This document shows positions 1,902 through 28,650 of a stretch of DNA of 32,000 nt, piece after piece. The notes below the pieces were generated by a model. That model did no database searches. It worked only from the letters and a program-made list of their open reading frames with translations, and was not told the DNA's origin. Source of the stretch: Trichlorobacter lovleyi SZ (lineage in GTDB: Bacteria > Desulfobacterota > Desulfuromonadia > Geobacterales > Pseudopelobacteraceae); contig NC_010814.1 in NCBI RefSeq assembly GCF_000020385.1, positions 3,750,001 through 3,782,000 on the forward strand, read 5' to 3'. Position 1 is the stretch's first letter. The number at the start of each line of letters is the position of its first letter. The position numbers and the translations under genes are program-made.

Positions 1902-4900
1902 ATGAAAATCAAACGACTTGAGATAGCCGGGTTTAAATCGTTTGCCGATAAGGTGGTACTGGATTTCCAGCAGGGGGTGACCGGCGTGGTAGGCCCCAAC
2001 GGCTGCGGCAAATCCAACATTGTGGATGCGATGCGCTGGTGTATGGGGGAGCAATCCGCCAAGAACCTGCGCGGCAAGGCGATGGAAGACATCATCTTTG
2101 CAGGCAGCGACAGCAGGAAACCGTTGGGGATGGCAGAGGTTTCGCTTGTTTTTTCCACCGAAGACGGACGCGCCCCGGCCAAATATCTGGAATTTAGCGA
2201 GATACAGCTGACCCGTCGCCTCTATCGTGATGGCGAGAGTGAATACCTGATCAACAAGACCCCCTGCCGCCTGCTGGATATCTCGGAGCTGTTCATGGAT
2301 ACCGGGGTGGGCACCAAGGCCTATTCAATCATCGAGCAAGGCAAGATCGGCCAGATTCTGCATTCACGTCCTGAAGAACGGCGCCTGCTGATTGAAGAGG
2401 CCGCCGGCGTTACCAAATACAAGACCAGAAAACAGCTTGCCCTGAAAAAGATCGAAGCCACCCGCCAGAACCTGCTGCGGCTGGCAGATGTACTCGGCGA
2501 GATCAAGCGACAGCTCAACAGCCTGCAGCGCCAAGCCAAAAAGGCGGAAAAATTCCGGGAATACCGTGAAGAGCTGCGGGAGATCGACCTGCAGTTCACC
2601 CTGCACCAGGCCTCAACGCTGCAGCACGATCAGCACCAGGCCGAGCAGCAGCTGGCGGAACTGAAAAACCGGATGCAGGAGATAGTAACGGCAGCCGACA
2701 CAGCAGACAATCAGGTGGAACTGCAGCGCCTGGCCATGCTGGAAGCCGAAAAGGCATTAAACATCCAACAGGAAGAACAGTTCCGGTTTCGCAGCGAAGC
2801 CGCTGCCTGTGAAAGCGACCTGAACTTCTGCCGCAAAGAGCGCGACGCCATTGCAGAACGGCTGACCAGACTGGTGGCCGAGCTTCAAACCATCTCCCTG
2901 CAGAGAGATGCACTTGCAACAGAACTGACCAACCTGCTCCAGCTGCAGCAGACGACCGGCAGTGATCTGCTTACGGCGGAAACAGAACTGGCCGGCCTGC
3001 TTGAGGGTCATAAAGAACAGGAACAGCGCTATGAAGAGCTGAACCGGCAGCTTGATGCAAAACGCAGAGAGCTGTTCAGCGCAACCGGTGAGGCAACCCA
3101 CTGCCGTACCCGTCATGAACAGGCACAGAAACGCCTGGTCATGCTGGCAGAGCGCCTTGAACGCCACACACGGGAAGAAGCCCAGCTGATTGAAAAGCAG
3201 GCCGAAAACGCAGCCAGCCACACAAAGGTTGAAGCGGAATGGCGGCACTGCACCCTTGAGCATCAAGCGGCAACAACCGAGCTTGCTCGGCTTACCGAGC
3301 AGGAGCGGGTGCTGAAGGCGCAGCTGCCCGAGCTGGAACAGCTGGTGCAGAACCGTCGTGATGCCTTGAGTCAAAACCGCTCCCGCCTGACATCACTACA
3401 GGAGCTTGAGGCCCAGTTTGCCGGCTACGGTCAGGGGGTACGTCTTTTAATGACGGAATCACCGCTGCGGAGCCGCTTCGGAGGATTGCTGGCCGACAAC
3501 CTGCTGGTGCCCGAGGAGTACGAGGTTGCTGTTGAGGCGGTACTGGCTGAACGTCTGCAAACAATCCTGTGCGGATCAGAGCAGGAACTGATCAGCTCAA
3601 TCCAGTATCTTCGACAGCACTCTGCAGGACGCGCCCAGCTGACCTTTCCCGCCGGCAACACACCACCCCGCACCACCAGTGAGATTATCGGTGCACCAGA
3701 CCTCCTCTCGCTGGTGGAGGTCAATGACAATGCCAGGCTGCCGGTACAGCGGATGCTTGCCCAGGTGCTCCTGGCGAACAGTCTTGAAGAGGCCCTGGCC
3801 TATTCCCGCCGCTATCCGGAACAGACCTTTGTCACCAGAGAGGGTGATGTTGTTGCACCCGACGGCACTGTCAGCGGCGGTTCAGTCGAGACCGCCCAGA
3901 ATGGTATCATCCATAAAAAACGTGAAATCAGGTCGCTCGAGCTGCCGGTGGAAAACCTGCTGGCCGAACTGGAATCCTGCGAGTCCGAGCGGGACCGGGT
4001 ACGCGCCGATCTGCAGGGTGCGGCTCAAGAACTGCTGCAGGCACGCAGCAACCTGCATCAGCTCGATCTGACCCTGACAGGGCTGGTCAAGGACCGGCAG
4101 CAACTTGAGGCTCAGTCGGCCCAGCTTGCTGAACGACTCAAGCTGTTAGTGCTTGAACGTTCCACGCTTGACGAAGAGCAGTGCCTACTGCAGGAAGAAC
4201 AGAAAAGCGCCGCGATCGGCCAGGAGGCTGCAGAACTTCAGGCCAGACAACTTGAGCAGGAATCCCGCGGCATTACTGCCGAGATCGAGGGGCAGCGCCT
4301 GATCCTGGCTACGGCACGCGAGACCCTGACCACACAACGGGTCACCGTTGCCACCCTCCGGGAGCAGGGCGAGGCCCATCAGCGCACCAGGGCCTCCCTT
4401 ACAGCCCAACTGGATGAGCATGAGCGCAGAATCAAAAACGGTGCGGACGAACAGGAGCAATCCGAGAACAACCGCCAAGAGCTGCATAACCGGATAGAAT
4501 CCGAGGAGATCCGTCTTGCAGCCCTGCTTGAACAGCAACGCCGGCAGGATGAACTGCTGCTGCTTGTCAGAAAACAGTACGAGACAGCGGCAGCAGAGCT
4601 AACCACGGCAGAACATGATGCACGCCTGCGTCGCGACGAACGCGAGGCGATCCGCCAGCTGCATGCCGACCTGTCGCTGAAGGTCTCATCGCTCACCCTG
4701 CAGCGGGAACACCTTGAGCAGTCCCTGCAAGACCGCCACCGGATCGGCCTGTCCGAGGTGCGGGAGCGCCTGGGTGAACAGACGCTGGACCCTGTGGTTG
4801 CGCGGGTCCGCCAGACCGACCTTGAACGGCTGATCGACGAGTTGGGTGAAGTTAACCTGATGGCCATCGAAGAGTATGCCGGCATGGAACAGCGCTATGA

Positions 4901-19159: not shown

Positions 19160-19230
19160 GGCGACTCCCTTGACGGTTTTTCAGATAGTACGACACTGCA
19201 GATAAATTGCAACAACAGGATTGGAATAGT

Positions 19231-21015
19231 ATGGCCCTGATTACCCTGCGCGACATATCCCTGGCCTTTGGCGGCCCTCCGCTGTTTGACGGCATCAACC
19301 TGCAGATCGAACCGGGGGACCGGCTCTGTCTGATGGGCAGAAACGGTACCGGCAAATCCACCCTGATGAAGCTGATCAGCGGAGATATCCCGCCGGAGGG
19401 TGGCGAAGTCATCCGCAGCCAGGGCCTACGGGTGGCGTTGGTCTCCCAGGAGATCCCCCAGGAGGTGGCCGGTACGGTCTTTGAGGTGGTGGCACAGCAT
19501 CCCCATGCTGTAGCCGGTGCTGAGCAATGGGAGCATGAACAACAGGTGGAACGGGTGCTGAACCGGCTGCATCTGGAGCCGGAGGCGGAGTTTGCCACCC
19601 TCTCCGGCGGCACCAAGCGACGGGTGCTGCTGGCCCGCGCCCTGGTGTCGGCACCGGATATCCTGTTGCTGGACGAACCGACCAACCACCTGGATATTGA
19701 GACCATCCTCTGGCTGGAGGAGTTTCTGGCCAGAAACATCACCACCTGCATCTTTGTCACTCACGACCGTGCCTTTGCCCGGCGGCTGGCGAACAGAATT
19801 GCCGAGCTGGACCGGGGTAGAATCTATGCCTTCTCCTGCGGCTACGACCAGTTTGTGGATCGTCGCGAGGCACTTTTGGAGGCGGAAATTACCCGGATGG
19901 CCCTGTTTGACAAGAAGCTGGCCCAGGAAGAGGCATGGGTCCGCCAGGGGATCAAGGCCCGCCGCACCCGCAATGAAGGCAGGGTCCGGGCACTGAAGGC
20001 GTTGCGGGAGGAGTACCGCCAGCGTCGCACCCGTCAGGGTACCGCAACCATCCGGCTGCAGGAGGCTGAGCGCTCCGGCCGGCTGGTGATTGAGGCGGAA
20101 CAGGTCAGGTTCAGCTATGGCAACCGGACCGTGATCCGCGACCTCTCCACCACCATCATGCGGGGTGACAAGCTGGGGATCATCGGCCCCAACGGCTCCG
20201 GCAAGACCACCCTGCTGCGGCTGCTGCTGGGCGAGCTGGAGCCACAGTCCGGCTCGATCCGGCAGGGCACCCGGCTGGAGGTGCTCTATATGGATCAGAT
20301 GCGTGACCAGCTTGATCCCCAGAAAAGCGTGGCTGAAAATGTGGGGGAAGGGAATGACACCCTGGTGATTGGTGGCAAATCACGCCATATTATCGGCTAC
20401 CTGCAGGACTTTCTATTCTCGCCGGAGCGGGCCCGCTCTCCGGTTTCAATCCTCTCCGGCGGCGAGCGCAACCGGCTGTTGCTGGCCAAGCTGTTCACCA
20501 AACCGGGCAATGTACTGGTGCTGGATGAGCCGACCAACGACCTGGATGCCGAGACCCTGGAGCTGCTGGAGGACCTGCTGATGGAGTACAGCGGCACCCT
20601 GTTGCTGGTCAGCCACGACCGGGAGTTCCTGAACAACGTGGTCAGCTCCACCCTGGCGATCAACGCTGACGGCACGGTCAAGGAAACGGTGGGCGGCTAT
20701 GATGACTGGCTGCGGGAACAACAACTTGAGGCTGCCCCGCCTGTTGCAACAAAGCCGGCTCAGGAAAAGGGCAAACCGCAGAAAGAGCGGCCCCGCAAGC
20801 TCTCTTTCAAGGAAGAGCGTGAACTGGAGGGGTTGCCGGAGCGGATCACCACCCTTGAGGCGGAACAGGAGCAGATCCACAGCACCCTGGCTGATCCTGA
20901 ATTCTACAAAAATGCCGGGCCGGAGGTGGCGCGCCTCAACAGCCGTCTGGAAGAGCTGGATGCCGAACTGCTGGCCGCCTACGGACGCTGGGAAGAGCTG
21001 GAGGCGCTGCGATGA
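19231..21015 (+). CDS. uup: ABC-F family ATPase (Uup-like)
   Basis: It has two NBDs and no TMD. The first has GRNGTGKST / LSGGTKRRV / LLLDEPTNHLD and the second has GPNGSGKTT / LSGGERNRL / VLVLDEPTNDLD. A C-terminal coiled coil is present. The ATG at 19231 (MALITLRDISLAFGG) is preferred over the TTG at 19207. Confidence 0.9.
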   Translation: MALITLRDISLAFGGPPLFDGINLQIEPGDRLCLMGRNGTGKSTLMKLISGDIPPEGGEVIRSQGLRVALVSQEIPQEVAGTVFEVVAQHPHAVAGAEQWEHEQQVERVLNRLHLEPEAEFATLSGGTKRRVLLARALVSAPDILLLDEPTNHLDIETILWLEEFLARNITTCIFVTHDRAFARRLANRIAELDRGRIYAFSCGYDQFVDRREALLEAEITRMALFDKKLAQEEAWVRQGIKARRTRNEGRVRALKALREEYRQRRTRQGTATIRLQEAERSGRLVIEAEQVRFSYGNRTVIRDLSTTIMRGDKLGIIGPNGSGKTTLLRLLLGELEPQSGSIRQGTRLEVLYMDQMRDQLDPQKSVAENVGEGNDTLVIGGKSRHIIGYLQDFLFSPERARSPVSILSGGERNRLLLAKLFTKPGNVLVLDEPTNDLDAETLELLEDLLMEYSGTLLLVSHDREFLNNVVSSTLAINADGTVKETVGGYDDWLREQQLEAAPPVATKPAQEKGKPQKERPRKLSFKEERELEGLPERITTLEAEQEQIHSTLADPEFYKNAGPEVARLNSRLEELDAELLAAYGRWEELEALR

Positions 21016-21065: not shown

Positions 21066-23840
21066 ATGACCCCTGAAGCGAAAGCACGACAGGAAATTGA
21101 TCAAAAACTCGAACAAGCTGGCTGGGTTGTCCAGGATCTGAAAAAGATCAACCTGGGTGCCGGTCCGGGTGTTGTAGTGCGTGAATACCCAACTGATACC
21201 GGACCAGCGGATTATCTGCTGTTTGTGGATCGCCAGCCGGTCGGGGTAATCGAGGCCAAACCGGATAACACCATACTCACCTTTGTGGAAGACCAGACCG
21301 AACGCTACGCCCGCAGTACCCTTAAGTGGCGGATAACCTCCACACCACTGCGCTTCCTGTTTGAAAGCACCGGTCAGGTCATCCATTTTACCGACGGCGC
21401 TGACCCATCAGCCCGTGCCCGCGAGATCTTCTATTTTTTCAAGCCGGAACAACTTGCCGAATGGCTGCAGCAGCCTGAATCATTCCGTCGTCGCCTCAAG
21501 GCACAGATGCCGGAACTGCCGACCCGCAACCTGCGTGATTGCCAGATCAGCGCGGTGACTGGGCTGGAGAAATCTCTTGCCCAGAACAGGCCCCGCGCCT
21601 TGGTGCATATGGCAACCGGCGCTGGCAAAACCTTCACCGCCATTACCTCGGTCTACCGACTGCTCAAATATGGCGATGCCAAGCGGATTCTTTTCCTGGT
21701 TGATACCCGCAACCTGGGGAAACAGGCACATCAGGAGTTCATGGCCTACACCCCGCCCGACGATGCCCGCAAGTTTACGGAACTATACAATGTACAGCGC
21801 CTGAATGGCCCCACCATTGACCCGGCAGCCAAGGTCTGCATCAGCACCATTCAGCGGATGTACTCCCTCCTTTCTGGTGAACCGATTGATGAGTCTGCCG
21901 AGGATGTGCCGCTGGACCAGATTGTCCAAACCGACAAGCAGGCAAAGGTTGTGAGGTACAACCCGGCTGTACCGGTGGAGACCTTTGATGTCATCATTAT
22001 TGATGAATGCCACCGCAGCATCTACAACCTCTGGAAACAGGTGCTCGACTACTTCGATGCCTTCCTGGTGGGCCTCACCGCCACCCCTGACAAACGCACC
22101 TTTGGCTTCTTCAATGAAAATATCGTTGCCGAATACACCTACGAGCAATCGGTGGCCGATGGCGTGAACGTGGGGTATGACGTCTTTGAGATTGAAACCG
22201 AGATCACCAAAAAGGGGGCTGAACTGAAGGCCAAAGAATGGGTGGATCACCGCGACCGGCAGACCCGCAAGAAACGCTGGGCCGAGGCAGAGGAAGATCT
22301 GCTCTACACCGGCAAGGAACTGGACAGGTCGGTGGTAAACATCAGCCAGATCCGCAAGGTGATCCAGGCCATGAAAACAGCGGTGGAGACGCAGATATTC
22401 CCCAGCCGTAACGAGACCCCCAAGACCCTGATCTTTGCCAAGACCGACAGCCACGCCGACGACATAATCCAGATCGTGCGCGAGGTCTACAACCAGGGAA
22501 ACGCCTTCTGTAAAAAAGTCACCTACAAGGCAGAAGAAGACCCGGACAGCATCCTTGCCAGCTTCCGCAACGACTATAACCCGCGCATTGCCGTTACCGT
22601 GGACATGATTGCCACCGGCACTGATGTAAAGCCTTTGGAAGTCTTGCTCTTCATGCGTGATGTCCGCTCTAAGGGGTATTATGAGCAGATGAAGGGACGC
22701 GGTGTCCGCAGTCTTGACCATGATGCCCTGAAACGGGTATCCAACAGCGCTGACAGCGCCAAGAGCCGCTTTGTCCTGATTGATGCTGTGGGGGTGGAAA
22801 AATCCCTCAAGACCGAAAGCCGCCCGCTGGAGAAAAAGCCGTCAGTACCGCTGAAAGACCTGATGCTGGGTGTGGCCATGGGGCACCGGGATGAAGATAC
22901 CGTACTCAGTCTGGCCAATCGTCTGGTGCGGCTGGCCAAGCAGTTGGATGACAAGGCCCTGGCGCGGATCGAAAAGAGATCCGGCGGGCTGACGGTTGGC
23001 GCTTTGGGCAAGACGCTGATTACCGCCATTGACCCTGATCGGGTTGTTGCAGCTGCCATTGCCACTGCCAAGGAAAAAGGGATCACCCGCACCGAAGAGA
23101 CCCTGACCGAAGAGGAGCTGACCGCTGCCCGCGCCCAATGCGTGGCTGCTGCCTGCGCCCCCTTTGACAGCCCGGAACTACGGGATGAAATCGAAGCAGC
23201 CCGCCGGGAACAGGAGCAGGTCATTGACCATATCAATCTGGATCAGGTCACCTTCTCCGGGTACAGCGCCCAGGCTGAAGAGCAGGCACAGAAGGTCATC
23301 CAGAGCTTTGCCGACTACATTGCCCAACATAAGGATGAAATCCAGGCGCTCAGTTTCTTCTACCAGCAACCGTACCAACGCCGTACCCTCACCTTTGAGA
23401 TGATCGAAGAGCTGCACGATGCCCTTTCCCGCCCGCCATTGATGCTGACCACCGAACGGCTCTGGAACGCATACGCCCGGGTGAAAGGTTCGCAGGTAAC
23501 CGGCGCTGATACAAAACGGCAACTGACTGATCTGGTGGCCCTGGTTCGTTTTGCCATTGGGCTGGATACGGAATTGAAGCCGTTCCGTGATCAGGTGGAC
23601 AGGCGTTTTCAGGAATGGATCTTCCGCCACAACGCCAAGCGCACCACCGCCTTCAGCACAGAGCAGACCGAATGGCTGCGGCTGATGAAGGATCATATCG
23701 CTTCCAGTTGCTCCATAGCCCGTGACGATTTTGAGTATGCCGAGTTTGCCGCCAAAGGTGGCCTGCAGAGGGTGTGGGGGCTGTTTGGTACGGAGCTGGA
23801 TGGGGTGATGACGGAGATGAATGAGGAGCTGGTGGCGTAA
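21066..23840 (+). CDS. hsdR: Type I restriction enzyme R subunit (HsdR), EcoEI-type C-terminal domain
   Basis: The N-terminal nuclease region is ARQEIDQKLEQAGW...DYLLFVDRQPVGVIEAK (PD-(D/E)xK). The helicase has motif I MATGAGKT and motif II IIIDECHRS. The C-terminal region (FSGYSAQAEEQAQKVIQSFADYI...FEMIEEL...) resembles the EcoEI R C-terminal domain. Confidence 0.95.
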   Translation: MTPEAKARQEIDQKLEQAGWVVQDLKKINLGAGPGVVVREYPTDTGPADYLLFVDRQPVGVIEAKPDNTILTFVEDQTERYARSTLKWRITSTPLRFLFESTGQVIHFTDGADPSARAREIFYFFKPEQLAEWLQQPESFRRRLKAQMPELPTRNLRDCQISAVTGLEKSLAQNRPRALVHMATGAGKTFTAITSVYRLLKYGDAKRILFLVDTRNLGKQAHQEFMAYTPPDDARKFTELYNVQRLNGPTIDPAAKVCISTIQRMYSLLSGEPIDESAEDVPLDQIVQTDKQAKVVRYNPAVPVETFDVIIIDECHRSIYNLWKQVLDYFDAFLVGLTATPDKRTFGFFNENIVAEYTYEQSVADGVNVGYDVFEIETEITKKGAELKAKEWVDHRDRQTRKKRWAEAEEDLLYTGKELDRSVVNISQIRKVIQAMKTAVETQIFPSRNETPKTLIFAKTDSHADDIIQIVREVYNQGNAFCKKVTYKAEEDPDSILASFRNDYNPRIAVTVDMIATGTDVKPLEVLLFMRDVRSKGYYEQMKGRGVRSLDHDALKRVSNSADSAKSRFVLIDAVGVEKSLKTESRPLEKKPSVPLKDLMLGVAMGHRDEDTVLSLANRLVRLAKQLDDKALARIEKRSGGLTVGALGKTLITAIDPDRVVAAAIATAKEKGITRTEETLTEEELTAARAQCVAAACAPFDSPELRDEIEAARREQEQVIDHINLDQVTFSGYSAQAEEQAQKVIQSFADYIAQHKDEIQALSFFYQQPYQRRTLTFEMIEELHDALSRPPLMLTTERLWNAYARVKGSQVTGADTKRQLTDLVALVRFAIGLDTELKPFRDQVDRRFQEWIFRHNAKRTTAFSTEQTEWLRLMKDHIASSCSIARDDFEYAEFAAKGGLQRVWGLFGTELDGVMTEMNEELVA
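23817..23840 (+). repeat. Direct repeat copy 1: last 7 codons plus stop of hsdR (ATGAATGAGGAGCTGGTGGCGTAA)
   Basis: It is 22/24 identical to 24461..24484. Confidence 0.9.
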
Positions 23841-23845
23841 TGGTA

Positions 23846-23982
23846 CTGGCTTCGACTGCGCTCAGCCAGCGGAACCGCAACCTCCCCCTGAACTAGTCCG
23901 TAACCGCTCCCTGAGCGCAGTCGAAGGGAGCATCCAGCGGGACTGTCCCAGCTCCCGTTCCCTGAGCGCAGTCGAAGGGAAC
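23846..23982. repeat. Repeat module 1: 31-nt A box (23846-23876) and two 26-nt hairpin B boxes (23906-23931, 23957-23982)
   Basis: The A box is CTGGCTTCGACTGCGCTCAGCCAGCGGAACC. The B boxes are GCTCCCTgagcgcagtcgaAGGGAGC and GTTCCCTgagcgcagtcgaAGGGAAC, each with a 7-bp stem. The B core CTGAGCGCAGTCGAAG is the exact reverse complement of A positions 23850-23865. Confidence 0.9.
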
Positions 23983-24012
23983 ACACTCGAAGAGAGCGAA
24001 CAGGAGAACTAA

Positions 24013-24468
24013 ATGCCCTATATGTACATTCTCGAATGTGCCGATGGCAGTTACTATACAGGCAGCACATGGAATCTTGAAAAGCGCCTTTGGGAGCACC
24101 AACAGGGGATTGGTGCCCGTCATACAGCAAAGCGTCTTCCTGTAAAGCTGCTTTACTGCGAAGAATATGCGCGTATCGATGAAGCATATTTTCGAGAAAA
24201 ACAAGTGCAAGGCTGGGGTAGGAAGAAAAAGGAAGCCTTGATGGCTGGAAAATTTGATGAATTGCATCAGCTGGCCGTGTGCGGAAATGAAACGTCGCAC
24301 TTGAGAGATGCTGGCTTCGACTGCGCTCAGCCAGCGGAACCTTCCCGCTCCGACTCCGGCTCCCGTTCCCTGAGCGCAGCCGAAGGAAGCAACCAGCGGA
24401 GCTACACCCCCCGCTCCCTGAGCGCAGCCGAAGGGAGCACAGTCATAGAGAAAGACGTAAATGAATGA
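24013..24468 (+). CDS. GIY-YIG nuclease family protein (domain in about the first 95 aa; the C-terminal about 55 aa is read-through of repeat module 2)
   Basis: MPYMYILECADGSYYTGSTWNLEKRLWEHQQG...VKLLYCEEY...AYFREKQVQGWGRKKKEAL carries the GIY(-x10)-YTG, R..EH and E motifs of small stand-alone GIY-YIG proteins. The tail FDCAQPAEPSRSDSGSRSLSAAEGS...SLSAAEGS is simply the A/B repeats translated. Confidence 0.8.
   Translation: MPYMYILECADGSYYTGSTWNLEKRLWEHQQGIGARHTAKRLPVKLLYCEEYARIDEAYFREKQVQGWGRKKKEALMAGKFDELHQLAVCGNETSHLRDAGFDCAQPAEPSRSDSGSRSLSAAEGSNQRSYTPRSLSAAEGSTVIEKDVNE
24311..24438. repeat. Repeat module 2: identical 31-nt A box (24311-24341) and two B-box variants (24365-24390, 24413-24438)
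   Basis: The A box is 31/31 identical to 23846-23876. The B cores read CTGAGCGCAGCCGAAG, one T-to-C change relative to module 1. The first B' stem is degenerate. Confidence 0.9.
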
Positions 24469-24484
24469 GGAGTTGGTGGCGTGA
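24461..24484 (+). repeat. Direct repeat copy 2 (ATGAATGAGGAGTTGGTGGCGTGA), overlapping the hsdS GTG start
   Basis: It is 22/24 identical to 23817..23840. The GTG at 24481 is the hsdS start and the TGA at 24482-24484 would be the ancestral hsdR stop. Confidence 0.9.
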
Positions 24485-26025
24485 CAAATACCGTGTTTTC
24501 TAATGGTTGGTTAACTGTTCCATTAAGTGATTTGTTAATGTCACTTGAAACTGGTAGTAGGCCAAAAGGTGGTGTTAGAGGAATTACTGCTGGCATACCA
24601 AGCTTGGGTGGAGAACATCTGGATTCAAATGGAGGATTTAAGTTAGATAACATACGCTATGTTCCATTGGAATTTGCAGAATTAATGACCCGTGGAGCTA
24701 TTAACAATGGTGATATTTTAGTCGTAAAAGATGGCGCCACGACTGGTAAGGTTTCGTTTGTAGACAATTCATTCCCGTTAAGTATAGCCGTTGTTAACGA
24801 ACATGTATTTTTATGTCGCTGCTCATCACTGCTTAATTCTAAATACATTTTCTTCTATTTGTTCTCAAATTCAGGAAACCAACAAATTCTTGAGGATTTT
24901 AGAGGGGCGGCACAAGGGGGAATAAGCCAACGTTTTGCAGACCTCGTAAAAGTCCCATTAGCTCCAGCAGCTGAACAAACGCGCATCGTCGAAAAACTCG
25001 AAGAGCTTTTCTCTGATCTTGATGCCGGAGTAGCCGAACTCAAGGCCGCACAAAAAAAGCTGGCCCAATACCGCCAATCGCTGCTGAAAGCAGCGGTGGA
25101 AGGTTCACTTACTGCTGAGTGGCGTACCAAAAACACACCCAAAGAAACCGGCGCGCAACTGCTGGAACGCATCCTGAAAGAGCGCCGTGCCCGCTGGGAA
25201 GAGAAGCAGCTTGCCAGGTTTAAGGAGCAGGCCAAAACCCCGCCCAAAGGATGGCAGGACAAGTATCCCGAACCGGTGCAGCCGGATACCACCAATCTGC
25301 CGGAATTGCCGGAGGGGTGGGTGTGGGCGAGTGTTGATCAAGTCGGAGAAGTGTTCTTAGGCAAGATGCTTGATAAGACAAAACACCAAACTGGTGCAAT
25401 GTTACCTTATTTGCGAAATATCAGTGTTCGTTGGGGCAGCATTGAGACTCACGATCTTCCTGAAATGTATTACGAGGAAGATGAGCTTGAGCGTTACGGC
25501 CTTGCATCTGGGGACGTGCTGGTGTGTGAAGGTGGTGAGCCGGGGCGTGCAGCAGTATGTGGCAAGGAGCATGAAAAGTTGAAATACCAAAAAGCACTTC
25601 ATCGGGTTAGGCTGTTCAGTTTATATGAATCAGATTTACTGGTCTTTTATCTCGAACACTTAGCTAAAACGGGTATGCTTGAACAATATTTTACCGGAAG
25701 CACAATTAAGCATTTTACAAAAGAAAGCTTTATAGCGTTGCCGATACCGCTTCCTCCTATTTGCGAACAGTCAGAAATCGTAGAGCATCTAAAATTAGCA
25801 ATTCAGTGTGCACAAGAGCAAGATGCCGCAATTATCCACTCCCTCACCCAAGCCGCTGCCCAGCGCAAAAACATCCTCAAATCCGCCTTCTCCGGCCAGC
25901 TTGTACTGCAAGCCCCCAACGATGAACCGGCAAGCCTGCTGCTGGAGCGGATACGGGCAGAGCGGCAGAAGGGTGAATCCAGCACCAAGAAGCGTAGTAG
26001 CCGCAAAAAGGTGGCTAAGCTATGA
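24481..26025 (+). CDS. hsdS: Type I restriction enzyme specificity subunit (HsdS), two target-recognition domains
   Basis: The N-terminus WLTVPLSDLL...ETGSRPKGG is typical of a TRD. The central conserved helix is LAPAAEQTRIVEKLEELFSDLDAGVAELKAAQKKLAQYRQSLLKAAVEG. The second TRD starts LPEGWVWASVDQVGEV. The C-terminal conserved helix is LPPICEQSEIVEHL...RKNILKSAFSGQL. Confidence 0.95.
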   Translation: MTNTVFSNGWLTVPLSDLLMSLETGSRPKGGVRGITAGIPSLGGEHLDSNGGFKLDNIRYVPLEFAELMTRGAINNGDILVVKDGATTGKVSFVDNSFPLSIAVVNEHVFLCRCSSLLNSKYIFFYLFSNSGNQQILEDFRGAAQGGISQRFADLVKVPLAPAAEQTRIVEKLEELFSDLDAGVAELKAAQKKLAQYRQSLLKAAVEGSLTAEWRTKNTPKETGAQLLERILKERRARWEEKQLARFKEQAKTPPKGWQDKYPEPVQPDTTNLPELPEGWVWASVDQVGEVFLGKMLDKTKHQTGAMLPYLRNISVRWGSIETHDLPEMYYEEDELERYGLASGDVLVCEGGEPGRAAVCGKEHEKLKYQKALHRVRLFSLYESDLLVFYLEHLAKTGMLEQYFTGSTIKHFTKESFIALPIPLPPICEQSEIVEHLKLAIQCAQEQDAAIIHSLTQAAAQRKNILKSAFSGQLVLQAPNDEPASLLLERIRAERQKGESSTKKRSSRKKVAKL

Positions 26026-27077
26026 AAAAGCACTCAAAGACCACTCCAAGCCAGGTAGCACCTGAGGTAATGCCGCTGCTTGCCGATTTACGCCGATTGA
26101 TCGATGATGCCCGGCGCTCAGCAGCGGTGGCGGTCAACGCTGAACTGACGCTGATGTATTGGCGCATTGGCAAACGCATCCACGACGATGTGCTTCAAGG
26201 CGAACGGGCCGGTTACGGTAATCAGATTGTCGCCACACTGTCACGACAATTGAGCCTTGAGTACGGACGCAGCTTTAGTGAAAAGAACCTGCGTCATATG
26301 ATGCGGTTTGCCGAGTCGTTTCCCTCTGAGGAAATTGTCTCGACACTGTCGAGACAATTGGCATGGAGTCATTTTCTCGAGCTGATCTACTTGAAAGATC
26401 CTCTGGCACGGGAATTTTACGCGAACATGTGTACTGTGGAGCGTTGGAGTGTACGTACCCTGCGTGACAGGATCGGTTCACTGCTTTTTGAACGTACCGC
26501 CTTGTCACGCAAGCCTGAAGAGTTGATCCGACATGAACTTGCTGCTCTGCATGCCTCGGATGTCATCTCGACCGGCATGGTGCTGAAAGACCCGTACCTG
26601 CTCGATTTCCTTGAGTTGCAGGATCGCTATCTGGAAAAAGACCTGGAAGACGCCATTTTGCGGGAGCTGGAAAATTTCCTGCTGGAGCTAGGCGCCGGTT
26701 TTTCTTTTGTGGCGCGACAAAAGCGGATTCAGTTGGATAACGATGACTTTTACATAGATTTGCTCTTCTACAACCGCAAGTTGCGGCGTCTGGTGGCCAT
26801 TGACCTGAAACTGGACGATTTTCGCGCTGAATTCAAAGGGCAAATGGAACTGTATCTGCGCTGGCTGGCCAAGTACGATCAGGAGCCCGGTGACTTGCCG
26901 CCGCTTGGAATAATTTTGTGCAGTGGCAAAAAACATGAACAGGTTGAGTTACTTGAGCTGGACAAGGCTGGCATCCATGTTGCCGAATATCTGACTGTGT
27001 TGCCGCCGCGCGAACTGTTCCAAAAAAAGCTTCATGAAGCTATGATTCAGGCACGAGCACGTTTAGACCAAGGATAG
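26022..27077 (+). CDS. DUF1016 / YhcG-type PDDEXK nuclease family protein
   Basis: The N-terminal region (LLADLRRLIDDARRSAAVAVNAELTLMYWRIGKRI...GYGNQIVATLSRQL...FSEKNLRHMMRFAESFP) is typical of the YhcG family. The C-terminal nuclease core is GFSFVARQKRIQLDNDDFYIDLLFYNRKLRRLVAIDLKLDDF, with D...(D/E)-x-K as IDLK. The ATG overlaps the hsdS stop (ATGA). Confidence 0.85.
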   Translation: MKKHSKTTPSQVAPEVMPLLADLRRLIDDARRSAAVAVNAELTLMYWRIGKRIHDDVLQGERAGYGNQIVATLSRQLSLEYGRSFSEKNLRHMMRFAESFPSEEIVSTLSRQLAWSHFLELIYLKDPLAREFYANMCTVERWSVRTLRDRIGSLLFERTALSRKPEELIRHELAALHASDVISTGMVLKDPYLLDFLELQDRYLEKDLEDAILRELENFLLELGAGFSFVARQKRIQLDNDDFYIDLLFYNRKLRRLVAIDLKLDDFRAEFKGQMELYLRWLAKYDQEPGDLPPLGIILCSGKKHEQVELLELDKAGIHVAEYLTVLPPRELFQKKLHEAMIQARARLDQG

Positions 27078-27090
27078 TACGTCTGCCTAG

Positions 27091-27164
27091 CTCCTGTGGT
27101 AACGCTTTTTACCACAGGAGTACTAACGAATAACCACAGGAGCTTCGATCTGTTACCACAGGAG
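27091..27164. promoter_or_regulatory. Candidate operator/iteron array: perfect 12-bp palindrome arms plus phased direct copies of T(T/A)ACCACAGGAG upstream of hsdM
   Basis: CTCCTGTGGTAA (27091-27102), cgcttt, TTACCACAGGAG (27109-27120). Further copies are TAACCACAGGAG (27131-27142) and TTACCACAGGAG (27153-27164). Direct copies start exactly 22 bp apart. The last copy ends 25 nt before the hsdM ATG. Confidence 0.5.
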
Positions 27165-27189: not shown

Positions 27190-28650
27190 ATGACCACCTC
27201 CGCCCTGATCCAGAAAGTCTGGAACTTCTGCCATACCCTGCGCGATGATGGCGTCAGCTATGGCGACTATCTGGAACAACTCACCTACCTGCTATTTCTG
27301 AAAATGGCGGACGAGTACGCCCAGGAACCGTATAACCGGGATACCCATATCCCCAAGGGGCATGACTGGGCTTCCTTGCGTGGTAAATCCGGTGAACCGC
27401 TGGAGGCACACTATCTGGCTATTCTCCACAAACTGGGCACTGGTCCCGGCATGCTGGGGGCAATCTTCTTCAAGGCACAGAACAAGATCCAGGACCCGGC
27501 TAAACTGGCCCGTCTGGTACAGATGATTGATGCCGAGAAGTGGGTCGGCATGGACACCGACACCAAGGGTGACCTGTACGAAGGGCTGTTGCAGAAAAAC
27601 GCGGAAGACACCAAGAGCGGCGCTGGCCAGTACTTCACCCCCCGGCACCTGATTGACGCCATGGTGGCCTGTATCAGGCCGGAACCGCTAAAGACCATTG
27701 CTGATCCTGCCTGCGGCACCGGCGGTTTTTTTCTTGGTGCCCACAAGTGGCTTACCCGGCCAGGGAGCAGTCTCGACAAAAAACAGAAGGAGTTTTTGCG
27801 CCACAAGACCTTTCACGGCAATGAGATTGTACCCAACACCCGCCGTCTCTGCTTGATGAACCTGTTTCTGCACAATATCGGCGAACTGGATGGTGAGCCG
27901 AACGTTGACCGTTCCGATGCCCTGATTGCAGAGCCCAAACAACGCTTTGACTACGTGCTGGCCAATCCGCCCTTTGGCAAGAAAAGCAGCATGACCTTCA
28001 CCAACGAAGAAGGGGAAGAGGACAAGGACGCCCTGACCTACGAGCGCCAGGATTTCTGGGAAACCACCTCCAACAAACAGCTTAACTTCCTGCAGCATAT
28101 CGCCTCAATGCTCAAAGAAACCGGCAAGGCAGCCGTGGTTCTGCCCGACAACGTCCTTTTTGAAGGGGGCGCTGGCGAAAAGATCCGCAAGAAACTGCTG
28201 GAAAACTGCGATGTTCACACGGTTCTGCGCCTGCCCACTGGTATCTTCTACGCCCAGGGGGTCAAGGCGAATGTGGTGTTTTTCGACGCCAGGCCGAAGG
28301 ACGGGAAGATACAGACCAAGGGTGTCTGGTTTTATGACCTGCGCACTAACAAGCATTTCACCCTGAAAACCAGAACACTGAAAGAGGAAGATCTAAAAGA
28401 GTTCATAACCTGTTACAACCCGGAGAATCGCCATGAACGCACGGAAGCTGAACGCTTCAAGTATTTCTCCTATGATGAACTGATTGCCCGCGACAAGGCC
28501 AGCCTGGATATCTTCTGGCTAAAGGATGACAGCCTTGATAATCTGGACGAACTACCTGCGCCTGATGTCCTGGCGCAGGAGATTATTGATCATCTGGAAG
28601 CGGCGTTGAATTCTTTCAGGGATGTGGCGGCAGGGTTGGCTGTCAAATAA
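27190..28650 (+). CDS. hsdM: Type I restriction enzyme methyltransferase subunit (HsdM), N6-adenine
   Basis: It has an HsdM N-terminal domain (IQKVWNFCHTLRDDGVSYGDYLEQLTYLLFLKM), a SAM motif I (DPACGTGGFF) and the catalytic motif IV (NPPFG). Confidence 0.95.
   Translation: MTTSALIQKVWNFCHTLRDDGVSYGDYLEQLTYLLFLKMADEYAQEPYNRDTHIPKGHDWASLRGKSGEPLEAHYLAILHKLGTGPGMLGAIFFKAQNKIQDPAKLARLVQMIDAEKWVGMDTDTKGDLYEGLLQKNAEDTKSGAGQYFTPRHLIDAMVACIRPEPLKTIADPACGTGGFFLGAHKWLTRPGSSLDKKQKEFLRHKTFHGNEIVPNTRRLCLMNLFLHNIGELDGEPNVDRSDALIAEPKQRFDYVLANPPFGKKSSMTFTNEEGEEDKDALTYERQDFWETTSNKQLNFLQHIASMLKETGKAAVVLPDNVLFEGGAGEKIRKKLLENCDVHTVLRLPTGIFYAQGVKANVVFFDARPKDGKIQTKGVWFYDLRTNKHFTLKTRTLKEEDLKEFITCYNPENRHERTEAERFKYFSYDELIARDKASLDIFWLKDDSLDNLDELPAPDVLAQEIIDHLEAALNSFRDVAAGLAVK

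Follow-up and report, generated by a model that had tools for sequence, protein, structure and literature searches.

How can a foreign gene come to lie between two genes that overlap and are translated as a coupled pair, without killing either of them? This question is raised by a Type I restriction-modification (R-M) operon of Trichlorobacter lovleyi SZ, contained in a stretch of 32,000 nt (NC_010814.1, positions 3,750,001 to 3,782,000 of the forward strand; hereafter, the window), where a small gene for a GIY-YIG nuclease, accompanied by arrays of stem-loops, stands between hsdR and hsdS. A preliminary description of the same DNA had taken this cassette for a mobile, homing-type element that duplicated its target. 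Our comparisons revealed that the interval between the two copies of the hsdR 3′ end was inserted into a junction at which hsdR and hsdS ancestrally overlapped, and that the sequence now present twice comes from the target. We consider it fairly probable that 23841-24460 is a guest cassette of ~620 bp, consisting of the GIY-YIG gene and REP-like arrays, which entered the GTGA overlap of hsdR and hsdS by repair or recombination. The coordinates of the features are collected in Table 1, and the loci used for comparison are designated by L and a number.

The hsdR tail occurs twice, as ATGAATGAGGAGCTGGTGGCGTAA at 23817-23840 and as ATGAATGAGGAGTTGGTGGCGTGA at 24461-24484, with 22 of 24 positions matching and 644 nt from start to start; in the shuffle control for this 24-mer pair, 0 of 100 gave two matches. 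Without gaps, the similarity reaches 29 nt at 90% (23810-23838 against 24454-24482; GACGgagATG... against GACGtaaATG...). The second copy is preceded by an in-frame TAA, its similarity to the first going back to 24454, and its stop codon overlaps the GTG start of hsdS (GTGA, 24481-24484). The 24-mer pair and the GTGA overlap are as the preliminary description had them, and so is the content of the interval: two repeat modules, ~140 bp by our measurement, and an AT-richer GIY-YIG open reading frame (ORF), which runs through the downstream module and into the duplicated tail, with its TGA stop (24466-24468) inside the second copy.

The second copy had been read as the remnant of a coupled hsdR-stop/hsdS-start junction, and empty sites in related genomes bear this out. 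In Geobacter pickeringii (CP009788), hsdR and hsdS share a 4-nt GTGA overlap with no insert (...ATGAATGGGGAGTTGGTGGCGTGAgtaat). From GTDB genomes, 80 hsdR loci were compared, and of the 77 that could be scored, ~50 display a GTGA or ATGA overlap without an insert (...GGTGGCGTGA), and the tail at these empty junctions is nearly always ATGAATGAGGAGTTGGTGGCGTGA. Tail copy 2 matches the empty-site consensus exactly, and copy 1 departs from it at two derived positions, through a synonymous T>C and through a TGA>TAA that abolishes the residual GTG start; the TAA change is seen again in the occupied loci L094, L096, L056, L085 and L065. At the empty sites, third codon positions are conserved at 0.92 over the final 8 codons of hsdR, as against 0.68 in the preceding 41 and 0.43 at the hsdS 5′ end, which fits a stretch that doubles as the HsdR C-terminus and as the Shine-Dalgarno sequence (GAGGAG) and start of hsdS. 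The existence of empty GTGA junctions thus shows the 24-mer to be part of the target and the ~620 bp between the copies to be inserted. The 24-mer might instead have travelled with the element. However, among 80 metagenomic GIY-YIG loci (core 60-99% identical; median flanks only 1-1.5 kb), it is present only in those that are themselves hsdR/hsdS junctions. Nor do the orthologous loci all have a spacer without the duplication, which by the preliminary description would also have refuted its proposal.

Table 1. The hsd operon of the window and the cassette at its hsdR/hsdS junction (positions are those of the window)
Feature	Position	Strand	Description	Remark
hsdR	21066..23840	+	924 aa, EcoEI-family Type I restriction subunit; Pfam ResIII, SWI2_SNF2, EcoEI_R_C	host gene 5′ of insertion
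Tail copy 1	23817..23840	+	final 7 hsdR codons and stop	stop now TAA
Upstream stem-loop array	23845..23985	+	REP-like	untranslated
Shine-Dalgarno of GIY-YIG gene	24002..24006	+	AGGAG, 6 nt 5′ of ATG	by sequence reading
GIY-YIG nuclease ORF	24013..24468	+	151 aa; Pfam GIY-YIG	Slx1/UPF0213-like core ~aa 1-93 (24013-~24291)
Downstream stem-loop array	24311..24440	+	REP-like	in frame with GIY-YIG ORF
Tail copy 2	24461..24484	+	duplicated hsdR 3′ end	hsdS Shine-Dalgarno GAGGAG 24467-24472; GTGA overlap
hsdS	24481..26025	+	514 aa, Methylase_S; AT-rich target-recognition domains	GTG start at 24481
DUF1016/YhcG gene	26022..27077	+	PD-(D/E)xK; PADLOC candidate PDC-S02	start overlaps hsdS stop; second guest in operon
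hsdM	27190..28650	+	486 aa, methyltransferase subunit	same Type I system

What kind of enzyme does the guest encode? The sole domain detected is a Pfam GIY-YIG match (PF01541, E=2e-15, aa 2-73), in which Y5, Y15, T16, G17, R25, E28, H29 and E62 are invariant over 39 homologs. The nearest solved structures are those of the UPF0213 proteins BH0048 (1ZG2, E=1.9e-13) and EF2693 (1YWL, E=7e-12). When the AlphaFold (AF2) model (pLDDT >90 for residues 1-90, ~50 for residues 100-151) was compared by Foldseek, the same two led the matches, followed by the Slx1 structures 7CQ3, 6SEH, 7CQ2 and 7CQ4 (root-mean-square deviation 1.8-3.0 Å over 65-71 residues) and, more weakly, by UvrC; homing enzymes were absent from these matches. 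No sequence-specific DNA-binding module was found in the nuclease, as residues 100-151 are translated repeat predicted to be disordered, the C-terminal ~50 aa being the translation of stem-loops (GFDCAQPA..., RSLSAAEGS...). The core of the ORF has a GC content of 0.45-0.48, compared with 0.56-0.65 in its flanks. By sequence and predicted fold, the protein is a stand-alone GIY-YIG nuclease of the Slx1/UPF0213 type, and it matches a protein of Trichlorobacter (Geobacter) lovleyi at 100% identity. No NCBIfam or PADLOC model fits it, and a search of a plasmid collection returned only 4 distant, uninformative matches.

The modules on both sides of the ORF (23846-~23985 and 24311-~24440) are homologous; their alignment, which takes in some flanking sequence as well, has a column identity of 81%. 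Each arm of a module is a small stem-loop with a variable stem of 6-8 bp and a conserved loop of 13-14 nt, as in GCTGGC-TTCGACTGCGCTCA-GCCAGC or, for the complement, GCTCCC-TGAGCGCAGTCGAA-GGGAGC, and the units are found in both orientations (F and R). The upstream array comprises one F unit (stem CTGGC/GCCAG, loop TTCGACTGCGCTCA at 23851-23864) and two R units (cores 23911-23927 and 23962-23978); the downstream array comprises an F unit at 24311-24337 and R units with cores at 24370-24386 and 24418-24434. Over all loci, 184 of 324 non-redundant units have at least 5 of 6 Watson-Crick pairs beside the loop, against ~36 in a permuted control, and the well-paired stems include 81 distinct ones. 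In 122 aligned units, 73% of the cells are paired versus 53% after shuffling, and the stem covariation score is 0.49 versus 0.19 (0 of 500 shuffles reach 0.49), with slid controls at 0.12-0.22. The loop varies (TTCGACTnCGCTCA, TTCGACArGCTCA, TTCGAGArCCTCA), and the number of hairpins ranges from 1 to >10 across loci. The modules are thus arrays of hairpins of the REP/REPIN-like kind. Outside the cassette, the 32-kb window contains no such unit, and 513 kb of hsdR loci contain few, only in or near hsd genes.

Several further observations concern these hairpins. An Rfam scan of the window gave no family at threshold, and the sole sub-threshold match in the cassette, Mu-gpT-DE (19 bits against a gathering value of 49, E=0.09), was judged a chance match. 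A sense-strand RNA structure is unsupported, with 104 G.T pairs antisense versus 67 and with units in both orientations. Solo hairpin doublets (~90 nt) lie in frame within the central conserved region of hsdS in two loci (L037:4201-4264 and L029:4767-4820), at the site ...LTAEWRA.RK-insert-ETGAQLL...; the ORF stays open, and no GIY-YIG gene stands beside the L037 doublet. The hsdS of the window has no hairpin insert at the corresponding point.

Does the cassette generate the duplication itself? A defined target duplication had been proposed, and this part of the proposal is not supported. The duplication spans 24-31 nt in the window, L009, L094 and L096 (~30 in L096). Different hsdM/hsdS junctions show duplications of their own tails, over 35 nt in L129, 41 nt in L131 and 11 nt in L108, and likewise in L130, L126 and L150. 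At the other extreme are L174 and L178 (0 nt). The junctions of Geotalea uraniireducens (L174) and Thiothrix lacustris lack a duplication; in the former, the cassette is inserted ~18 nt within hsdM, whose displaced tail is used by hsdS. Most cassettes outside hsd loci showed no flanking duplication. A universal target-site duplication can be rejected because most cassettes score at background in a generic duplication test (4-9 against a control mean of 6.3).

Moreover, unrelated guests share the duplication of the hsdR tail. It brackets an antitoxin and a MazF-like toxin in L023 and L065, and in L085 a 39-nt duplication accompanies ParDE on the opposite strand. In L015, three tail copies accompany two guests (DUF559; MazEF), and L053:3580-6122 has four copies, starting at 3580, 4936, 5551 and 6099, which delimit three guests 5′ of hsdS. 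The first of these is an AAA ATPase, the second a pair of antitoxin and MazF-like toxin, and the third a GIY-YIG cassette. The layout of L053 and L015 resembles an array of cassettes whose recurring boundary is the host junction. In Thiocapsa, the GIY-YIG cassette is found within the remnant of an older toxin-antitoxin guest, and the duplication there probably predates it. The reiteration of the junction thus varies in length (0-41 nt) and is not specific to the GIY-YIG guest.

Two other palindromic elements were noted at hsdR/hsdS. One, at L012:3731-3850 and also in L016, is a MITE-like palindromic element of ~110 nt with two internal hairpins and ends like terminal inverted repeats (CACATAAC.CCCC / GGGGTTATGT), bracketed by the hsdR-tail duplication (GAGGAGTTGGTtGCGTGA ... 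GAGGAGTTGGTGGCGTGA). The other, at L028:3604-3757 in a Lamprocystis metagenome-assembled genome (MAG), is one of another family of REP-like palindromes (GCTCCCACGCTCCAGCGTGGGAGC and its variants) and is followed by the tail-like AATAAGGAACTCGCCGCGTGA.

These data bear on the idea of an autonomous homing-type or transposon-like GIY-YIG element, whose own staggered cut at hsdR/hsdS would yield a defined target-site duplication. Such an element would account for presence/absence polymorphism at a very conserved site, for direct repeats of the target sequence that bracket the insert, for own-tail duplications at several hsdM/hsdS junctions and for the occurrence of at least two GIY-YIG subfamilies at the same junction, namely the window type and a clearly divergent one with TTCGACAAGCTCA-type loops at hsdR/hsdS in L029, L053, L056 and L080. 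However, the length of the duplication is not fixed, and guests without GIY-YIG carry the same one. The protein consists of a catalytic domain and a disordered tail, nearest to Slx1/UPF0213 and not to I-TevI-type enzymes. The 24-mer, if it were the recognition site, is intact in two copies (24/24 in L009, where the tail copies match each other completely). The cassette is no younger than the DNA on either side of it, and in Thiocapsa the duplication is probably the older of the two. Classical homing or a fixed target-site-duplication mechanism is unlikely, and we regard the autonomous element as very improbable; the label of a homing-type cassette is not supported.

Where else does the family reside? 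Hairpin units adjoin the GIY-YIG core in nearly all of the 80 loci, the first downstream unit at a near-fixed offset (+294..+310) in most of them. In 39 of the 80, hsdM or hsdR is found upstream on the same strand and/or hsdS downstream. The order hsdM-GIY-hsdS is seen in Geotalea uraniireducens Rf4 and Thiothrix lacustris, and an HsdM-tail peptide (K-G/R-I/M-V/L-x) ends 31 of the 120 best protein homologs. Other neighbours are an EcoR124-type HsdR, Fic, AbiTii and a ResIII helicase, and unrelated contexts occur as well (HdN1 near OmpW, an ion channel, QueG); HdN1 does not have the order hsdM-GIY-hsdS. The family strongly prefers the place immediately 5′ of hsdS, at hsdR/hsdS or hsdM/hsdS junctions. 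Since the junction types and the duplicated tails differ, several independent insertions can be argued for.

The Geotalea locus (L174:4836-5400; CP000698) shows what such an insertion does to the proteins. The hsdM gene, minus its last ~6 codons, reads into a stem-loop unit, and the end of the GIY-YIG ORF, which encodes the displaced tail of HsdM (KGMVE), overlaps the start of hsdS. HsdM and GIY-YIG proteins of this kind are thus annotated publicly as chimeras with repeat-encoded ends.

How old is the association at hsdR/hsdS? The arrangement is identical in T. lovleyi strains and MAGs, and L009, L094 and L096 have the same cassette at the same junction, with differing hsdS specificity domains and hairpin-unit numbers. 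Compared with the window, the nucleotide identities of the GIY-YIG core and of the hsdR 3′ part are 96.9% and 96.2% in L009, 96.5% and 96.4% in L094, and 72.9% and 68.5% in L096. The differences in the GIY-YIG gene at first, second and third codon positions number 0/0/9, 0/1/9 and 17/6/55, respectively. Given that third-position differences dominate and that the cassette and hsdR diverge in step, the nuclease is under purifying selection and did not arrive recently. The hsdR genes of empty sites (81-89% identity) are nearer to that of the window than the hsdR of the occupied L096 is, which implies losses or more than one gain.

The hsdS genes differ in another way. Between the window (24481-26025) and L009:2288-3814, only the first target-recognition domain (TRD1) was exchanged: HsdS is 15-20% identical over aa 1-~160 and 90-100% over ~160-480, and the left boundary of the swap is the hsdS start. 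The TRDs are AT-rich (GC 0.33-0.41, against 0.55-0.6 in the conserved parts). An exchange of TRD1 specific to the cassette was rejected, because TRD swaps occur with and without it.

Could the cassette then be a passive passenger, whose nuclease has no part in movement and which hitch-hikes with TRD or operon recombination at the left edge of the exchanged TRD1? The swap that begins at the hsdS start, with the cassette and the remaining hsdS 90-100% identical, the AT-rich and foreign-looking TRDs and the divergence of the cassette in step with hsdR would all agree with this, and the tail DNA, near-invariant across classes, offers homology for recombination. On the other hand, a passenger explains neither why this nuclease/hairpin family is found again and again at junctions of different types, each time with a tail duplicated independently, nor the purifying selection on the nuclease, nor the in-frame solo doublets inside hsdS. 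We give this explanation only a small chance.

How is hsdS translated once the guest has separated it from hsdR? No promoter-like or terminator-like site was found in a scan of 23600-24700, so that the cassette probably uses the transcription of the operon. Across long downstream hairpin arrays, the GIY-YIG frame is open in 12 of 17 relatives, compared with 4/17 and 3/17 for the other frames. In 9 of 27 hsd-linked loci, the GIY-YIG stop and the start of hsdS share 4 nt, and in 16 of the 27 the stop lies within -10..+21 nt of that start. Since the ORF of the window stops 12 nt 5′ of the hsdS GTG, directly at the hsdS Shine-Dalgarno sequence, the translation of hsdS may be relayed through the guest, and these reading frames suggest that hsdS is probably coupled to guest translation. 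The earlier statement that the cassette uncoupled hsdR from hsdS is therefore half right: the direct coupling of hsdS to hsdR is gone, but a coupling is apparently relayed via the guest ORF.

This arrangement also raises the possibility that the cassette has been domesticated and now serves the R-M or defence operon as an accessory, the nuclease aiding defence or DNA processing, or the translated hairpins tuning hsdS expression and mRNA stability. Its consistent place just 5′ of hsdS, the purifying selection on the nuclease, the frame kept open with its stop at the hsdS start, and neighbours that include Fic, AbiTii and HsdR agree with such a role, and defence genes embedded in Type I R-M operons are a known pattern (PMC12255303; bioRxiv 10.1101/2024.01.29.577857). 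Nevertheless, most closely related operons are intact without the cassette, the family is also found in unrelated contexts such as that of HdN1, no PADLOC or NCBIfam model covers the protein, and the highly unstable hairpin copy number is more like that of a repeat element than of a tuned regulator. Domestication is therefore an unlikely explanation.

The reading that we prefer, entry of a guest cassette by repair or recombination, would proceed as follows. Guests would enter overlapping junctions through repair- or recombination-mediated events, for which template switching at hairpins and unequal homologous recombination via the very conserved tail are candidate routes, and only those events that rebuild both gene ends would be retained. 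In the window, hsdR has its C-terminus and stop in copy 1, and hsdS its Shine-Dalgarno sequence and GTG in copy 2. The tail repeats might then let guests be lost precisely, stacked, or exchanged from one hsd operon to another. The nuclease, of a structure-specific type, would probably act on cognate hairpin or cruciform DNA and thereby stimulate recombination.

Several points weigh against this account. A tail-tail tandem without an insert was sought in the 77 scorable loci and none was seen. The cassette co-diverges with hsdR, and could for this reason be an old, mostly vertically inherited operon passenger. The query used in counting the hsd association belongs to an hsd operon, and the count covered its closest relatives, so that the association may partly reflect shared ancestry and not targeting. 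The mobility of the cassette, the origin of the first duplication and an action of the nuclease on hairpins are our inference. A wider interpretation is possible, although we doubt it: the hsdS-proximal junction might be an integrase-independent site of cassette acquisition, with a dual-function sequence of 24-40 nt at every guest boundary, and the hairpins with their Slx1-type GIY-YIG nuclease a mobile family dedicated to this niche, even entering the hsdS linker in frame and possibly promoting TRD1 recombination.

Does the cassette belong to a known class of elements? The free-standing GIY-YIG homing genes of T4-type phages (Seg/Mob type) are small, lie between conserved genes, are polymorphic in presence and absence, and are transcribed with the host unit, and the cassette resembles them in each respect. 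It differs in the absence of a NUMOD or helix-turn-helix module, in its Slx1/UPF0213-like fold, in the REP-like arrays alongside, in a target that is duplicated rather than disrupted, and in its location on a bacterial chromosome at a Type I R-M junction. In REP/REPIN-RAYT systems, a gene for an HUH (Y1) tyrosine transposase is flanked by cognate palindromic stem-loops, which are dispersed in hundreds of copies. The likeness here lies in a gene of nuclease type that has cognate stem-loops on either side, in both orientations, as doublets and in variable copy number, with covarying stems and a conserved core. However, the enzyme is GIY-YIG and not HUH, and the hairpins are often translated and seem concentrated at the cassette and hsd operons in the window and the 513 kb of other loci scanned. 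Integron cassette arrays have an integrase and attC-type sites. They are comparable to L053 and L015 by analogy only, in that successive unrelated guests are each bounded by one short sequence 5′ of a fixed gene; the hsd arrays have neither integrase nor attC-type sites, and their repeat is a host 3′ end with a ribosome-binding site, 24-40 nt long and drifting.

The resemblance to Slx1/UPF0213 extends to sequence, fold and the invariant Tyr/Tyr/Arg/Glu positions, but Slx1 acts on branched DNA, together with Slx4 and a RING domain. The "Slx1 cluster, non-Eukaryota" of Dunin-Horkawicz et al. (2006; PMC1564403) includes such proteins, and these authors reported that MCA0838 of Methylococcus capsulatus is an HsdR with a "recently inserted" Slx1-like GIY-YIG domain, which an 80%-identical homolog lacks. 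MCA0838 likewise has an Slx1-like GIY-YIG in the 3′ part of hsdR and very likely represents the phenomenon seen here, interpreted as a fusion ORF. The authors treated it as an isolated curiosity, a domain insertion, and their report includes no hairpin arrays, junction duplication, empty sites or hsdS-proximal preference. Foreign genes between hsd genes, such as PrrC, are comparable to the guests seen here. DarTG2 has been described between hsdS and hsdR, at a site proposed as a recombination hotspot (PMC12255303), and the guest genes of Type I R-M operons have been used for "guilt-by-embedding", in a study whose main text does not mention GIY-YIG (bioRxiv 10.1101/2024.01.29.577857). These reports differ from ours in that they describe neither insertion into an overlapping stop/start junction nor reiteration of the junction at guest boundaries. 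Beyond the 2006 remark on MCA0838, we found no description in the literature of the hairpin/GIY-YIG cassette, the hsdS-proximal preference or the reiterated junction, and the habit is apparently widespread and undescribed.

The reiteration of an overlap at the boundaries of a guest offers a concrete route by which foreign genes can enter between translationally coupled genes, killing neither. It may explain why Type I restriction operons gather toxin-antitoxin, nuclease and other guests, and suggests why their loss is clean. The numerous, orphan UPF0213/Slx1-like GIY-YIG proteins of bacteria are tied here to a stem-loop partner with a conserved 14-nt loop, which is a candidate substrate, and to an hsdS-proximal niche. 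For annotation, it follows that "extended" GIY-YIG proteins, and HsdR, HsdM or HsdS proteins with odd GFDSAQP/SLSGVEG segments, contain translated hairpin repeats.

The host operon is a complete Type I R-M set in one cluster, with an HsdR helicase-nuclease, an HsdS with two TRDs and an HsdM N6-methyltransferase by Pfam. HsdR homologs of 80-97% identity are spread over many Proteobacteria, and relatives keep the order hsdR-hsdS-(guest)-hsdM. The hsdS-hsdM position is a second guest hotspot of this operon: it is occupied by DUF1016 in the window, by Fic in G. pickeringii, by AAA_15 and DUF4276 in L012, and probably by nothing in L009. A junction duplication was sought at the DUF1016 guest and none was found. 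Directly 5′ of hsdR is a gene for an ABC-F (Uup-like) ATPase (19207-21015), the same neighbour as in the T. lovleyi MAG contigs L002 and L003, whereas uvrA takes this place in G. pickeringii; since the upstream neighbour differs, the hsd operon occupies different chromosomal contexts.

Two sets of repeats were noted in the 3′ part of the operon. The DUF1016 ORF contains two near-palindromes of 27 nt, 108 nt apart, ATTGTCGCCACACTGTCACGACAATTG at 26226-26252 and ATTGTCTCGACACTGTCGAGACAATTG at 26334-26360. In the 112-nt gap 5′ of hsdM, TTACCACAGGAG is directly repeated to give three copies, of which one has a single mismatch, at an exact spacing of 22 nt (27109-27164); these could be operator or promoter-region repeats for hsdM.

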